62,709 bases of DNA from Promethearchaeota archaeon (GTDB taxonomy: Archaea > Asgardarchaeota > Lokiarchaeia > Sigyniarchaeales > SOKP01). Each line of letters begins with the position of its first letter. Position 1 is the first letter of the stretch. Made by a program: the position numbers and the translations under genes. The notes below the pieces were generated by a model. The model was not told the origin of the DNA and did no database searches. It saw only the letters and a list, made by a program, of their open reading frames with translations. The stretch is taken from positions 1 through 62,709 of the forward strand of contig DAOUVJ010000002.1 of the NCBI GenBank assembly GCA_030667705.1. The letters run 5' to 3'. Positions 49,273 to 53,343 of the stretch are shown piece by piece.

Positions 49273-50385
49273 TTATTTTTCAACGATTTTTTCTTTAACT
49301 GCGGTACCAAAATGAGTAGCTCCAGGTCCTACATGCACTATAACTTCATCACTAATTTTAATATCAACAACAGGGCGAGCAACGCCGTGATTATCAACAA
49401 TTTTAACGGTTTCTGCATTTTGGCATATACAATTAATATGAATGACTTCATTATTAATTAACGCTTCTAATTCAAATCGAAGCATCGGTCGCGTTTCAAT
49501 CTTGACACGACCTACAGTAGCTATTCTAGTATTTCCTTCAATATCAACAACATAAACTTGGTCTCCACCCTTTAATTCACTTAAATACTTGGTACGATAT
49601 ACTCCTTGCTTTTCCGAGGGAACCAGAATATAAGCCGAAACATCCCCGGCATTTACACGAAATGGTCTTGAAGAGACAAATTTTGTGTCAAATACTTCAG
49701 CATGAACTAATACAAATCCTTTAGCTGTACTCCCTATGAGCATGCCCTCACCTACTTCAAGAAGAGAAGTTGTATCTACACATACTCGCTCGCTTTCAGG
49801 TATATTTTGAATACTTATAACTTTCGCTTTCGTTAAGTTGATCTTAAAATTTGATTGAGTAAATCTTTTTAATTCTTCCAATTCATCCACGTTTTTAGGG
49901 GCGTATAAAATTCCATCAACTCCCACTTCTAAAACGTTAAGCATTAATTCAGCTTATTTAACCGAATAAACTTCTGCGATTAAATTTGTATTGTTAGAAT
50001 GCATTGCAGCAATAAGATTTTCATAAGGTATAACTTTCCAATCTTTTGCTGAGACAATAATAAAATCAAGTAAACTAGTTTCAGATAGTCCTATAATTAT
50101 GCTCTCATCTTCTTTTGTTACTAACTCTCTATAGATACCGATTTTTATAGGATTTGATTCACTTTTAGGCATTAGTCTTTTTGCCTCATCTATATCTGAG
50201 CAAATTAGATTTTTTACGGGTAAAGTAAGATCTTTAGAATACGTGATTAGCCTTTCAAATTGAGATATTTCTTGAAGCACTTCTTTAGAAACAAGTATAT
50301 CCAAGAAATTATGATTTAAAGCTTCTTGAATTAACTTTTTAAAATTAGGGGTTTTCTGTTCAATGTTAAGTATAATAGTCTTCAT
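49273..50385 (-). pseudogene. aroB': 3-dehydroquinate synthase II (archaeal AroB') interrupted by one in-frame TAA at 49956-49954
   Basis: The two track ORFs (143 and 223 aa) are in the same frame, separated by TAA-GCT-GAA-TTA-ATG. Together (~366 aa) they are colinear with single-chain DHQS II (WKVIPYENLIA...RPFRVNAG...GRVKIE.RP...QNAET). Confidence 0.7.
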
Positions 50386-50547: not shown

Positions 50548-51198
50548 GTGGGAATTAAAAAGAAACTTTTTCCAAGAAAAGGAGTTGAAAAAGAAGAACT
50601 TGTAATTAAGGCCAAGGCGCATATTCGTAAGATGGCTCTGGCGAATAAAACTTATAGCAAAAGATCAGAAATCGCAAGAAAGAATGCAAAAATTGCTTTG
50701 AAACGAGGAGAAAGGGTAAGAGCGAAGAACTATCTAATCCAATTTAAGCAATATCAACAAAAGGTTGACCGAGCTAACAATATTCGAGCTAAAATAGAGC
50801 GATCCCTAGAAGCGGTTGAAGAAGGCAAAATGATTTCTATGACAGGTGATTTAATGGGTGGGATTAGAGATGAATTACAGACTATTTCGACTAAAGTCTC
50901 CCCCGAAAAAATTGCTATAATTGCGGAAGACTCTGAGGCATATGTTGCTGAAATAGAAGAATCTGCTGAAATATTAGCTGGTGACCCGGAGATTGACCTA
51001 GCTATTGATGTGACAGATGAATTAAATCAGCTTGAAACCGAGATGCTACTCGATCAAGGTGGTCAGATACCTGATGTACCTGCAGATGATTTACAATACA
51101 TTTCAGAGTTTGAACTTGATGAGGAAGAGCCTGAAATAAGAACTAAGGCAAAATTAAGTGATGAAATAGAAAAATTGAGGAAAGAGTTAGAATCATAA
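50548..51198 (+). CDS. Snf7/ESCRT-III (CHMP)-like protein
   Basis: At 216 aa it has a basic N-terminus (MGIKKKLFPRK), a long basic helical hairpin, an acidic C-terminal half and a terminal MIM-like helix (SDEIEKLRKELES). The start is GTG. Confidence 0.65.
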   Translation: MGIKKKLFPRKGVEKEELVIKAKAHIRKMALANKTYSKRSEIARKNAKIALKRGERVRAKNYLIQFKQYQQKVDRANNIRAKIERSLEAVEEGKMISMTGDLMGGIRDELQTISTKVSPEKIAIIAEDSEAYVAEIEESAEILAGDPEIDLAIDVTDELNQLETEMLLDQGGQIPDVPADDLQYISEFELDEEEPEIRTKAKLSDEIEKLRKELES

Positions 51199-51246
51199 AT
51201 TCTATTATCATTTTTCATTCTTTATAGCATTAAATTTTTACTTATT

Positions 51247-53343
51247 TTATGAATAATATTGTCTACCGTAAAATTCTCGATGTTTTCCTTTAATATCTTC
51301 AATTTCTTCCAAATCTTGGCTAATGTTCTCAATATTCTTATCGATAGAATATATCTGTTTCTGAAGGTTTTTGAAAGTCCTAAAATAATCAACTTCAGAA
51401 ATTATCCCTTGATCGAATTTTGTATCTAAAGCTTTCAAAGTTTCATCCAGACTATATTTTTCCTTCTCGAAATCACGCAATTTTCTGAGTTTTTCTTTTT
51501 CTTTTTTTGAATACTTTCCTTTAGTATTTAAATCATTAGGAATGAAATTTTCTTGATTAAAATATTCAGATAAATGATTTTTGGAATAATCATTATACAT
51601 GGAACGCTTTCCTTCATTTATATTCGAATATGAACCATGATCTCTTTGGGGGATATCGTAAGAATCATTGATCTCTGGAGAATGTAATAGACCATTTTTT
51701 TGAGCTTGCTCGAGTTTTCTCATTAGAATTTTTTTGTTTGTATCTATTCTCTGATTATTATTTCTGGTAGGAATTCTTCTTCTTTCATAGTTCTGAATTC
51801 TGTTAGGATCATATAGGTTTTGTGGAATAAAGCGATTATCGTAATAAGGTTGTTTATATTGATTGTTAACCCTTGGATTTCCAATAATAAACATGTTTTG
51901 GGGATCTTGATTAGGATATGTTTTATTATTGATTTGTTGGGGGGGGAGATTTTGATATTCTCGTGGAGGAATGGGTTGTGAGACTTGATAGTTTTGTGGT
52001 GGTATATTTTGAAGATAATTTGGTTGATATGGTTGTGGTTGATATGGTTGTGGTTGAATTCTTGGAATATCTTGAAGAATATAATTTGGCTGTCCTGCCA
52101 TGCTTATTGGGATTAGATTATCGGAATTTTGATTTATACTATTATATTGGCACTTTAAACTAAAAAATGAGTTAATAGTTTCTTCAATATATGCAGTTAT
52201 ATCATTTAATTCGATATAGATATTGTTAAGTCTCTCTGCGGTCTCTTGATCATACTTTATAGTATCATCAAAATTCCTTGCTAAAATAATATAATCCAAA
52301 ACTCGTGTAATGTTATTTGGAGGAAGAGAGAACTCATATCTCCCATAAGGAAATTCAATATATAATTTCTTGAACATTTTACCTTGGGATTTGATTTTAA
52401 TTAAATCTTTTACAGGAGCCTTAAATATAACTTCTTTCTTTCTTTTTAGTCTTCCATATTCATGTACAAATGATAAGTCAAGATTCGTAATAAAGAGGAT
52501 CCCTCTACTTTTTTTTATTTTATCTTGAGTGTTTAAACCATTGGCTAATTTTGCATAAATAGCATAAATTGGTTTTTCATTTTCAGCTAAATTTAAGTAT
52601 TTTTTATAGGTTTCAAAGTAAAAGATGATTTTTTCAATAAATTTCAAGTAATCTTGAATACTTTCTAAACTTGTAGAAATTGTTTTTATGTTATTCGTAA
52701 CATATTCCTGAATTGAATCATTGCTTCTTGTTAGATTCTCAAGGATCCCCTCAATAATAATTACATTTTCATTTGGTTGTGAGTAAATATCAAAAAAATA
52801 TTCCTTGTTTAATGATAGCTGGTTAAAAAGAATGCTAATTTTCTCATGTAAATTCTCTTTTGCATAACTTAATAATTTAAATAGTGCTAGGAGGTCAGCC
52901 TCCAAGTGGGGAAAGTGATAACACTTAATTGGAGGTGCCCGTGCGTTTTTTGTTTTTTCGCGCAAATGGTACAAGTTATTAATAAGTTCGTTTAATGGCT
53001 CAATGAAGTATCGCACGTTTTTTATTATATCTAAAAAACTTTTTTCTAATTCCTCTTTTTTCTCATAAATATTGATTATTGATGTGGAATGACATTTTTG
53101 GCAAGCTTTTAATAATTGACTCCCTTTAGTAACATGTTCACTCTCACAATCCTTGCAAGATCCATTTTTACCTGAATCGTTTATTTCTATATTCTTAGAA
53201 TTACAATCTTGACATACAAAATAATCAATTTTTTCTTCATGTAAGCATTCAGAACAACAAGTGGCTCCACAATCCTCACAATAATAAGCCAGCTTAATAA
53301 GTCTATTGCAGAATCGACAAATCTGCATGTTCTGTTCCGACAT
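51247..53343 (-). CDS. Multidomain protein: cross-brace zinc finger + zinc ribbon + coiled coil + PH/GRAM-like module + P/Q/N-rich region + SHOCT-like tail
   Basis: The Cys spacing is C9-x2-C12-x9-C22-x2-C25-x3-C29(C30)-x2/3-C33-x10-C44-x2-C47, then C63-x2-C66-x14-C81-x2-C84. Residues 279-345 read GILFITNLDLSF...LYIEFPYGRYEFSLP. Residues 415-530 are P/Q/N/Y-rich. Residues 630-665 read LDETLKALDTKFDQGIISEVDYFRTFKNL. Confidence 0.5.
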   Translation of the reverse strand: MSEQNMQICRFCNRLIKLAYYCEDCGATCCSECLHEEKIDYFVCQDCNSKNIEINDSGKNGSCKDCESEHVTKGSQLLKACQKCHSTSIINIYEKKEELEKSFLDIIKNVRYFIEPLNELINNLYHLREKTKNARAPPIKCYHFPHLEADLLALFKLLSYAKENLHEKISILFNQLSLNKEYFFDIYSQPNENVIIIEGILENLTRSNDSIQEYVTNNIKTISTSLESIQDYLKFIEKIIFYFETYKKYLNLAENEKPIYAIYAKLANGLNTQDKIKKSRGILFITNLDLSFVHEYGRLKRKKEVIFKAPVKDLIKIKSQGKMFKKLYIEFPYGRYEFSLPPNNITRVLDYIILARNFDDTIKYDQETAERLNNIYIELNDITAYIEETINSFFSLKCQYNSINQNSDNLIPISMAGQPNYILQDIPRIQPQPYQPQPYQPNYLQNIPPQNYQVSQPIPPREYQNLPPQQINNKTYPNQDPQNMFIIGNPRVNNQYKQPYYDNRFIPQNLYDPNRIQNYERRRIPTRNNNQRIDTNKKILMRKLEQAQKNGLLHSPEINDSYDIPQRDHGSYSNINEGKRSMYNDYSKNHLSEYFNQENFIPNDLNTKGKYSKKEKEKLRKLRDFEKEKYSLDETLKALDTKFDQGIISEVDYFRTFKNLQKQIYSIDKNIENISQDLEEIEDIKGKHREFYGRQYYS
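52021..52058 (-). repeat. 2.5 x 15-nt tandem repeat encoding (QPQPY)n
   Basis: The units are tggttgatatggttg x2 followed by tggttgaa. Confidence 0.8.

Follow-up and report, generated by a model that had tools for sequence, protein, structure and literature searches.

The gene at 51247..53343 on the (−) strand of the window (the whole 62,709-nt stretch of DNA analysed) is an orthologue of Znr_CC_PH_SB, and we lean towards reading its product as a putative membrane-anchored scaffold of the archaeal ESCRT-I layer. This family (asCOG cog.011556) was described by Makarova et al. (2024, mBio; PMC10936438) as a "likely ESCRT-I component" spread over several Asgard lineages. The first-pass annotation of this DNA had delimited the 698-aa ORF, which is real, and nearly every feature it described was borne out, including the order of domains (zinc module, helical stalk, PH-like module, P/Q-rich linker and terminal hairpin). 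Its statement that the protein belonged to no described archaeal family was wrong, since the gene is cog.011556 and occupies the syntenic position of the family gene in Lokiarchaeum GC14_75. As the family was named in 2024, the window protein is a known candidate and not a new kind of protein. The window adds refinements to that family (a probable B-box-like finger, the identity of the neighbouring gene and limits of the synteny) but no discovery.

Family membership and gene order

The ORF begins with ATG, and 265 full-length homologues (48–92% identity to the window protein) were retrieved. Whole-protein searches of Pfam, NCBIfam and PDB sequences gave no significant match. The homologues found belong to Lokiarchaeia, Helarchaeales and Sigynarchaeum; searches with divergent alignments returned few proteins. 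The architecture and all 12 ligand Cys residues were kept in relatives only 18–27% identical overall, including those of Promethearchaeum syntrophicum MK-D1 and Lokiarchaeum ossiferum, indicating conservation far beyond chance.

The published architecture of Znr_CC_PH_SB comprises three zinc-binding modules, a coiled coil, a PH domain and a steadiness box (PMC10936438). Three zinc modules, a helical region with a PH domain and a predicted C-terminal steadiness box were all found in the window protein. It shares architecture, phylum and genomic position with the published family, and nothing essential differs.

In Lokiarchaeum GC14_75 the order PepD – L35Ae – cog.011556 – MetE – Vps20-family ESCRT-III – DHQS – Mer – GH57 – unknown – CAAX protease is given in Table S2 of PMC10936438, the family member (As_004-p_01543) lying between L35Ae and the Vps20-family ESCRT-III gene. 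The window reproduces this ten-gene order, save for MetE (inserted in GC14_75 and absent in the window), and locus L001 shows the same order as the table. Thus, the window protein is orthologous to As_004-p_01543, as shown by gene position alone. Besides lacking the MetE insertion at its locus, the window copy carries a private QPQPY repeat.

Domain organization of the protein

Cys residues of the window protein stand at positions 9, 12, 22, 25, 29, 30, 33, 44, 47, 63, 66, 81 and 84, with two more among the remaining 614 residues. The eight Cys previously counted in the first 47 residues are in fact nine, of which eight are conserved ligands, and the actual spacing is C-x2-C-x9-C-x2-C-x4-C-x2-C-x10-C-x2-C, followed by C-x2-C-x14-C-x2-C. 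C30 was taken as the ligand because C29 is not conserved beyond the closest subfamily. The eight ligands (C9, C12, C22, C25, C30, C33, C44 and C47), conserved across subfamilies, form a binuclear finger (aa 9–47; 53203..53319, (−) strand). A third zinc site is the CxxC-x14-CxxC ribbon (aa 63–84; 53092..53157, (−) strand), already recognized in the first pass, whose C63, C66, C81 and C84 are invariant. All 12 ligands (six CxxC pairs) were present in 191 of 203 N-termini, and 11 of the other 12 were truncated fragments.

All three zinc sites were termed "Zn ribbons" in PMC10936438, whereas in the window protein sites 1 and 2 seem to make up a single B-box-like binuclear finger. The spacing C-x2-C-x9-C-x2-C-x4-C-x2-C resembles that of B-boxes (PF22586, ANCHR/ZFYVE19-like, and PF00643), but in the window finger the last two ligands come 10 residues later as a CxxC pair, where B-boxes have His. 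The window protein had no significant B-box match in Pfam. Its relative P0210 fell just short of both cut-offs, with 26.6 bits for ANCHR-like_BBOX (cut-off 27) and 22.5 bits for zf-B_box (cut-off 24.1), and precomputed PF22586 and PF00643 matches exist on P0281 and P0242; the near-threshold scores come from distant, Helarchaeales-type members. One natural variant (P0232; n=1) lost Cys 1, 5 and 6 but kept 3, 4, 7 and 8, consistent with cross-brace ligation (pairs 1+3 and 2+4). Foldseek with a separate N-terminal model gave parkin and zinc ribbons (E>0.1 throughout), the best local structural match of the ribbon being the Rpb2 zinc ribbon (rmsd 1.7 Å over 41 columns). The N-terminal region of 38 aligned members gave weak zinc-ribbon Pfam matches, and a PDB profile search with the N-terminal module returned generic zinc ribbons alone (E>0.03). 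FYVE structures were absent from the Foldseek matches of this model, and the basic R(R/K)HHCR signature of FYVE is absent from the window sequence, the site reading AYYCEDCG. The B-box scores and the P0232 variant suggest that the first finger is probably B-box-like, with a putative cross-brace; of the earlier cross-brace proposal, the B-box-type reading has some support but the FYVE kinship does not stand.

The region earlier called a coiled coil was modelled by AlphaFold2 as a rigid stalk of about 160 aa (aa 92–250; 52594..53070, (−) strand) composed of three long helices (92–134, 147–184 and 191–250; pLDDT about 86–95). In a PDB profile search, the stalk together with the PH region retrieved coiled-coil-type sequences only, and the PH region itself gave no matches.

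A basic PH-like domain of bPH/GRAM type follows (aa 258–356; 52276..52572, (−) strand). AlphaFold2 predicted a seven-strand β-sandwich (258–339) capped by a C-terminal helix (345–356), the arrangement that defines the PH superfamily, and Foldseek and the Pfam matches of relatives agreed. The segment 279–345, in which a PH/GRAM/GLUE strand pattern had been noticed, lies inside this domain, and a further helix (380–406) comes after the domain. PH matches in Foldseek included DH-PH modules, the Lam6 PH-like domain, Sec3, Brag2 and Btk; Pfam bPH_3 was above its cut-off in the relative P0138, and GRAM matched weakly. The domain is net basic (20 K+R against 8 D+E in 99 residues), and its conserved basic residues include K278, K300, K302 and K308. 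DH-PH RhoGEF modules were the top Foldseek matches of the full model (E 1e-6 to 1e-4). They were rejected as a fold assignment, the superposition being poor (TM 0.14–0.35, rmsd about 16–30 Å), the stalk having three helices only, and RhoGEF Pfam matches being absent; the low TM and high rmsd indicate "long helices then PH domain", not a DH fold. BAR-PH was not among the best 50 Foldseek matches.

An analogy to yeast Vps36 (ESCRT-II) was drawn in PMC10936438 itself. As in the GLUE domain of Vps36, a PH fold (a membrane binder in Vps36) is combined with zinc fingers in an ESCRT-type protein. In contrast to GLUE, the window PH domain is contiguous, with no inserted NZF fingers, and winged-helix domains do not accompany it; the window protein had no winged-helix or EAP30 Pfam matches. 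Vps36 structures were not among the best 50 Foldseek matches, and the window PH domain resembles the bPH/GRAM type.

The P/Q/N/Y-rich low-complexity region reported earlier, with its DNA-level QPQPY tandem repeat, was confirmed as a disordered linker of about 200 aa (aa 408–609; 51517..52122, (−) strand) by composition and by pLDDT below 50. AlphaFold2 disorder covers 408–536 and 548–609, and residues 408–536 are 17% P, 16% N, 16% Q and 9% Y. The linker varies in length and sequence in the family alignment; two short motifs, NPNRIQNY (512–519) and NHLSxxF (589–595), are kept in the close subfamily. A perfect tandem repeat (15 nt × 2.5, detected by TRF; aa 430–441; 52021..52057, (−) strand) encodes QPQPYQPQPYQP and is private to the window genome, being missing from relatives 82–92% identical. 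The UEV-binding motif P[ST]xP is absent from the window protein; 16 of 120 close members carry it, as do 7 of 30 distant ones.

The protein ends in a helical hairpin (aa 613–692; 51268..51507, (−) strand; AlphaFold2 helices 613–644 and 650–692), which AlphaFold2 and profiles together suggest to be a steadiness box, the ESCRT-I headpiece module. Pfam Vps23_core matched 37 of 38 members, below threshold (12–23 bits against a cut-off of 26.8). In a profile search of 177,635 PDB sequences, the top seven matches were all yeast Vps28 or Vps23 ESCRT-I core chains (E 0.04–0.35). The family profile found the UEV-domain protein P0269 at E 3e-6 among 1.84 billion proteins, and hhalign of the family hairpin with this protein gave 96.6% probability (E 6e-10). 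The similarity to the Vps23 and Vps28 steadiness boxes is thus weak but specific: no single match reaches a curated threshold, and the lines of evidence converge on a predicted steadiness box. The helix pair had been called SHOCT-like; SHOCT (PF09851) had no match in the window protein at E≤1 and was not among the families matching more than one of the 38 members, so the Vps23_core matches replace that reading.

In eukaryotic ESCRT-I, the stalk helix passes straight into the steadiness box. In the window protein, by contrast, the PH domain and a disordered stretch of about 200 residues lie between the stalk (92–250) and the hairpin (613–692). Compared with Vps23, Vps28 and Vps37, it is without a UEV domain, a Vps28 C-terminal domain and a mod(r) domain, and its combination of zinc fingers and a PH domain is found in no eukaryotic ESCRT-I subunit. 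Like Vps37 and MVB12/UBAP1, it would bring a putative membrane-binding element to ESCRT-I.

The neighbouring ESCRT-III gene and its linkage

The family gene faces, tail to tail, a gene for a 216-aa ESCRT-III protein of the Vps20-32-60 class (50548..51198, (+) strand). Between the convergent 3′ ends lies an AT-rich spacer of 48 nt (51199..51246), read directly from the sequence; the gap reported earlier was exact. The neighbour matched Pfam Snf7 (PF03357, E 2.9e-11) and, over its full length, PDB 9FN1 chain U (E 5e-87, 66% identity over 218 aa), whose reference sequence is the CHMP4-7 of GC14_75. It is therefore an orthologue of Loki CHMP4-7, a characterized filament-forming ESCRT-III subunit (PMC11791191), encoded apart from the vps4 cluster, and not the "orphan" it had been called.

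Of 82 close loci, 35 have the Snf7 gene convergent with the family gene and within 300 nt of it, and a further 35 have it within 1.5 kb; MetE interrupts the pair in roughly half of these close loci. The ribosomal protein gene L35Ae was linked to the family gene in 76 of the 82. Snf7 linkage holds in Lokiarchaeales-type lineages but loosens to a spacing of 2.4–3.6 kb in MK-D1 and L. ossiferum; an adjacency of 50 nt was seen in a subfamily about 27% identical, at loci without the DHQS and GH57 neighbours. No Snf7 gene was found within 8 kb at Harpocratesius or Helarchaeales-type loci, and none of the loci examined had an ESCRT-I, ESCRT-II or vps4 gene next to the family gene. The ESCRT-III linkage is thus lineage-restricted, and its conservation does not exceed that of the linkage to L35Ae. 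With L35Ae linked equally tightly, conserved synteny is enough to account for the ESCRT-III adjacency, and being convergent the two genes are not co-transcribed. As a sign of functional coupling, ESCRT-III synteny was therefore judged weak. The CHMP4-7 neighbour fits a shared pathway, of which the gene arrangement is no proof.

Proposed role and alternatives

An ESCRT connection, claimed in the first pass, is the best reading of the protein. In the reading towards which we lean, that of a membrane-anchored ESCRT-I scaffold, the PH domain would hold the protein on anionic membrane lipids, and the flexible linker would let the headpiece extend from this anchor. The steadiness box would co-assemble with Vps23-like proteins, Vps28 or free-standing steadiness-box proteins. 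No Vps37 homologue is present in Asgard archaea, and the Odin proteins Vps23 and Vps28 assemble into a trimer (PMC9192718); the hairpin would take the third headpiece position, that of Vps37 in eukaryotes and otherwise vacant in Asgard archaea. By analogy to yeast Vps36 and its zinc fingers, the zinc module would bind a partner, the obvious candidates being ubiquitin or a further ESCRT subunit.

A bolder version is tentative, and we hold it only as a possibility: Znr_CC_PH_SB would be the third headpiece subunit that Lokiarchaeial ESCRT-I otherwise lacks, standing in functionally for Vps37/Mvb12 and joining in one chain PH lipid anchoring, B-box-like capture of a partner or ubiquitin and steadiness-box assembly (functions later split among ESCRT-0, ESCRT-I and ESCRT-II), perhaps coupled to the CHMP4-7 filament. 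The one-chain ESCRT-I reading was partly anticipated by Makarova et al.; the Vps37 slot and the coupling to CHMP4-7 go further. How Asgard ESCRT-I, ESCRT-II and ESCRT-III are recruited to the membrane bears on the origin of eukaryotic membrane trafficking. Vps37, Mvb12 and Vps36-GLUE modules are missing in Asgard archaea, and Znr_CC_PH_SB is an obvious candidate for a membrane anchor. Since the family occurs in the two cultured Lokiarchaeia and its gene is often adjacent to that of CHMP4-7, a biochemically tractable protein, the hypothesis lends itself to direct testing.

The kinship with Hrs/Vps27 (ESCRT-0) suggested in the first pass would make the protein a cargo adaptor upstream of ESCRT-I, its FYVE-like finger and PH domain binding lipid and its P/Q-rich region recruiting ESCRT-I; we consider this quite unlikely. 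The order of zinc finger, coiled coil, lipid-binding-type module and Pro/Gln-rich region resembles that of Hrs, and the central CxxCG...CxxC motif (C-x2-C-G-x3-C-x2-C) is common to FYVE and B-box fingers. However, the window protein had no Pfam match to VHS, FYVE or UIM at E≤1, and none of the three belongs to the 25 Pfam families that its 38 aligned relatives matched most frequently. A clathrin box is also missing, as are the FYVE basic motif and, from the Foldseek matches, FYVE structures. P[ST]xP, through which such an adaptor could contact a UEV domain, is absent from the window protein and not conserved in its family, and the protein carries a predicted steadiness box of its own, so an ESCRT-I-like placement is better supported than ESCRT-0.

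Alternatively, the protein may be a dedicated recruiter or nucleator of the CHMP4-7 filament, an analogue of Vps20/CHMP6, CHMP7 or ALIX-type proteins, in which PH targets the membrane and another part binds CHMP4-7, largely independently of ESCRT-I. The close convergent pairing in 35 of 82 loci (35 more within 1.5 kb), its recurrence at 50 nt in the about-27%-identical subfamily despite the loss of DHQS and GH57, and the identity of the neighbour as a characterized filament-forming protein outside the vps4 cluster speak for it. The idea is nevertheless unlikely, as the genes are not co-transcribed, L35Ae is linked equally tightly, the spacing widens in MK-D1 and L. ossiferum, and Snf7 is missing within 8 kb of the Harpocratesius and Helarchaeales-type genes. 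Very improbable is a protein unrelated to ESCRT, either a TRIM-like or B-box/coiled-coil scaffold or a DH-PH-like regulator of small GTPases, with the hairpin a generic oligomerization coiled coil. Some members are named "B-box zinc finger protein" by NCBI, the B-box scores come near threshold and DH-PH modules head the Foldseek list. Yet neither the window protein nor its 38 aligned relatives gave a RING match, which also speaks against the TRIM-type reading of the first pass; the DH-PH matches superpose poorly, and the stalk is three long helices with coiled-coil sequence matches only. The hairpin profile retrieved Vps28, Vps23 and the UEV-domain protein specifically, not generic coiled coils.

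Family membership and gene order

The 698-aa protein is encoded at 51247–53343 on the minus strand (ATG start), and its stop codon lies 48 nt from the end of a Snf7-family ORF (50548–51198, plus strand; PF03357, E 2.9e-11), the two genes being tail to tail. Read along the minus strand, the gene order was C69 peptidase, ceramidase-like, L35Ae, the 698-aa protein, Snf7, DHQS, GH57 and CAAX protease. In the Lokiarchaeum genome GC14_75 (Table S2 of Makarova et al., PMC10936438) it is PepD(C69), L35Ae, cog.011556 Znr_CC_PH_SB (650 aa), MetE, Vps20-family ESCRT-III, DHQS, Mer, GH57, unknown and CAAX protease, and a further locus bearing a homologue (L001) showed exactly the GC14_75 order, MetE included. 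This matching order indicated that the gene is the positional orthologue of the published family Znr_CC_PH_SB, although the first-pass annotation had recognised no described archaeal family. Makarova et al. (PMC10936438) report the family as absent in eukaryotes and "likely to be ancestral in Asgardarchaeota", call it "a likely ESCRT-I component" and expect its PH domain to be membrane associated. The protein belongs to a family already defined by computation, whose role is a prediction; the present analysis adds, modestly, an independent check of the steadiness-box identity, a probable B-box-like finger, assignment of the neighbour as a CHMP4-7 orthologue and the limits of the synteny.

A search of 5.8 billion proteins gave 265 homologues. 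The best 120 of these were nearly all full-length (624–715 aa) and 48–92% identical, and those with names were all Promethearchaeota/Lokiarchaeota MAG proteins, the closest (92%) being on L004, a contig of a Promethearchaeota MAG; several homologues carry the NCBI label "B-box zinc finger protein". When 1.84 billion representative sequences were searched exhaustively with the profile, just 169 proteins matched at E≤1e-3, indicating that the family is narrow. They divided into several subfamilies that share just 18–27% identity with the 698-aa protein yet keep its architecture and 12 conserved Cys, and covered Promethearchaeum syntrophicum MK-D1, Lokiarchaeum ossiferum, Ca. Harpocratesius, Ca. 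Sigynarchaeum and Helarchaeales-type MAGs. The orthologues in MK-D1 and L. ossiferum, both cultured Lokiarchaeia, make the published hypothesis testable.

Twelve contigs with typical Lokiarchaeial synteny (L066, i.e. DATKTW010000152.1, and L032, L033, L047, L051, L059, L065, L072–L074, L078 and L079) were labeled "Nanopelagicaceae bacterium" or Odin-, Thor-, Hod- or Hermodarchaeota. Their family proteins were ~46–55% identical to the 698-aa protein (L078, 61% over a partial match), which points to mis-binning or unreliable labels, so name-based claims on the family's taxonomic spread need care.

Domain architecture

An AlphaFold2 model computed from the alignment (pLDDT bimodal, mean 70) contained small beta elements surrounding the zinc sites (aa 6–91), a stalk of three long helices (aa 92–134, 147–184 and 191–250; pLDDT ~86–95), a seven-strand sandwich (aa 258–339) with a capping helix (345–356), a further helix (380–406), disordered regions (408–536 and 548–609) and a C-terminal helical hairpin (613–644/650–692). 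Strongly conserved in a 38-sequence alignment were the zinc module, the stalk, a GILFITNxDLSF...FKAPVxDL...YG[RK]YEF block and a C-terminal TLKxLDxKFDQGxISExDYF block; residues ~400–610 varied in length and sequence.

Cysteines were located at positions 9, 12, 22, 25, 29, 30, 33, 44, 47, 63, 66, 81 and 84, with just two more in the remaining 614 residues. All 12 family Cys were present in 191 of 203 N-termini, 11 of the other 12 being truncated fragments. The spacing first read from the sequence stood as written, but C29 was conserved solely within the closest subfamily and C30 is thus assigned as the ligand. The cross-subfamily consensus was C-x2-C-x9-C-x2-C-x3-F-C-x2-C-x10-C-x2-C. Helarchaeales-type members came near the thresholds for ANCHR-like_BBOX (26.6 against 27 bits, E 6.5e-6) and zf-B_box. 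A single natural variant, P0232, had lost Cys 1, 5 and 6 and kept 3, 4, 7 and 8, a pattern which cross-brace ligation predicts and two sequential ribbons do not (n=1). Residues 1–95 modelled separately (pLDDT 83) gave only weak Foldseek matches, to zinc domains of parkin and the Rpb2 zinc ribbon (E>0.1), which are neutral or count against the cross-brace reading. Of the FYVE/B-box-type finger originally proposed, the B-box-like reading is probable for the first finger, on the near-threshold Pfam scores and P0232, whereas FYVE was ruled out, its basic motif being missing and no FYVE match being found.

The PH-like fold proposed for residues 279–345 was confirmed by the modelled sandwich and by PDB matches found with Foldseek, which contained PH: DH-PH RhoGEF modules came first (E 1e-6 to 1e-4), followed by isolated PH-like domains from Lam6, Sec3, Brag2 and Btk. 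Among relatives, Pfam bPH_3 exceeded its cut-off in P0138 and GRAM matched P0263 weakly. The PH region, 99 residues long, has 20 K+R vs 8 D+E. A DH fold for the stalk was rejected, since the DH-PH matches had TM-scores of 0.14–0.35 and rmsd ~16–30 Å, amounting to "long helices then a PH domain".

The C-terminal hairpin had been described as SHOCT-like; SHOCT was not reported in Pfam searches of the protein and 38 aligned members. Vps23_core was the sole Pfam family matching nearly all members (37/38; best E 9e-4, every score below cut-off), and the top seven matches of a residue 608–698 profile to 177,635 PDB sequences were all yeast Vps28 or Vps23/Stp22 ESCRT-I core chains (E 0.04–0.35). Among 1.84 billion proteins the full family profile matched P0269 (E 3e-6), a 250-aa protein in which an E2-variant/UEV domain and the matching C-terminus form the Vps23 architecture; hhalign of the hairpin profile with P0269 gave 96.6% probability (E 6e-10, 61 columns). 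By these profile comparisons the hairpin is assigned as a steadiness box, not SHOCT. A hairpin at residues 332–388 of P0259 (395 aa; DUF4062 and TIR domain) also matched this region (profile E 9.6e-7), and the module may occur in defence-type proteins too.

Residues 408–536 comprised 17% P, 16% N, 16% Q and 9% Y. A perfect 15-nt × 2.5 tandem repeat at 52021–52057, coding for QPQPYQPQPYQP, was detected by TRF. ORF calls, composition and TRF bore out the ORF, the convergent 48-nt gap, the P/Q/N/Y-rich stretch and the repeat as initially noted. The QPQPY repeat was found in this genome alone, 82–92% identical relatives having QQQPYQPHLNHP or close variants; it arose by recent slippage within a rapidly evolving linker and is not a functional repeat. 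Two linker motifs, NPNRIQNY (aa 512–519, 51787–51810; 59/120 close relatives) and NHLSxxF (aa 589–595, 51559–51579; 108/120), were found in none of the distant subfamilies and are candidate short linear interaction motifs.

Predicted role

Domain identities, strong domain conservation and a basic PH surface were obtained by computation. In the mechanism we propose, the PH domain would tether the protein to anionic lipids and the disordered linker would give reach. Assembly with Vps23-like, Vps28 or free-standing steadiness-box proteins would fall to the steadiness box, and binding of a partner (by analogy with yeast Vps36, perhaps ubiquitin or an ESCRT subunit) to the zinc module. According to Hatano et al. 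(PMC9192718), Vps37 is missing from Asgard archaea, and the Odin proteins Vps23 and Vps28 assemble as a 2:1 trimer; a third steadiness-box protein with its own membrane anchor could plausibly take the place of Vps37. The linker had no conserved P[ST]xP, PPxY or YPxL motif, which is evidence against a handover to a UEV domain of the Hrs type. The first-pass interpretation is partly supported, in its domain order, PH-like part and ESCRT connection, but not in its SHOCT, FYVE, novel family or orphan ESCRT-III neighbour.

The ESCRT-III neighbour and its linkage

The Snf7 ORF matched PDB 9FN1 chain U ("Vps20/32/60-like protein (ESCRT-III)"), which is Loki GC14_75 CHMP4-7 (KKK44605.1), at E 5e-87 and 66% identity across the full 218 residues. 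Snf7 genes adjoining the family gene at other loci were up to 83% identical to this CHMP4-7. Judged by this similarity, the neighbour is a CHMP4-7 orthologue rather than an orphan paralogue. In vitro, the GC14_75 CHMP4-7 subunit forms helical tubes by self-assembly and remodels membranes (PMC11791191).

Among 82 close loci (9 too short to judge), the CHMP4-7 gene was convergent and ≤300 nt away in 35, ≤1.5 kb away with MetE intervening in another 35 and farther off in two; at one it was not found although ≥3 kb lay downstream. L35Ae lay ≤700 nt upstream in 76/82, indicating that the entire block is syntenic. Among more distant subfamilies, one of 800–950 aa (~27% identical) still had Snf7 50 nt downstream in L084, with DHQS and GH57 missing, and 4.3 kb off in L085. 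It was 2.4 kb off in MK-D1, with GH57 intervening, and 3.6 kb off in L. ossiferum; Sigynarchaeum had a 28%-identical Snf7 on the opposite strand 5 kb off, or none, and no Snf7 occurred within 8 kb in Harpocratesius or three Helarchaeales-type loci. At none of the loci examined was the family gene adjacent to vps4, ESCRT-I or ESCRT-II genes. The synteny is confined to particular lineages and is non-specific: CHMP4-7 linkage is compatible with a shared pathway but is weak evidence for one. It fades with divergence roughly in step with L35Ae linkage, and the two genes converge.

In Helarchaeales-type loci L097 (6061–7865), L098 (4660–7848) and L099 (4460–7753), the family gene was directly downstream of a metallophosphoesterase gene, itself with myo-inositol-1-phosphate synthase close upstream. 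This proximity is suggestive if the PH domain binds inositol lipids; residual synteny would explain it just as well, the L098 and L099 contexts being near-identical.

The Lokiarchaeial CHMP4-7 gene was far from the vps4/CHMP1-3/ESCRT-II cluster (on a separate contig in GC14_75), a placement not discussed in the searched passages of the two papers. The nearby 3-dehydroquinate synthase II gene (within 49273–50385) was interrupted by one in-frame TAA (49954–49956, minus strand), leaving 143-aa and 223-aa ORFs. A conserved Glu (GAA) occupied this position in 12/12 relatives checked, one of them 98% identical across the compared 49-residue stretch; the TAA reflects either a nonsense mutation or an error in the assembly.
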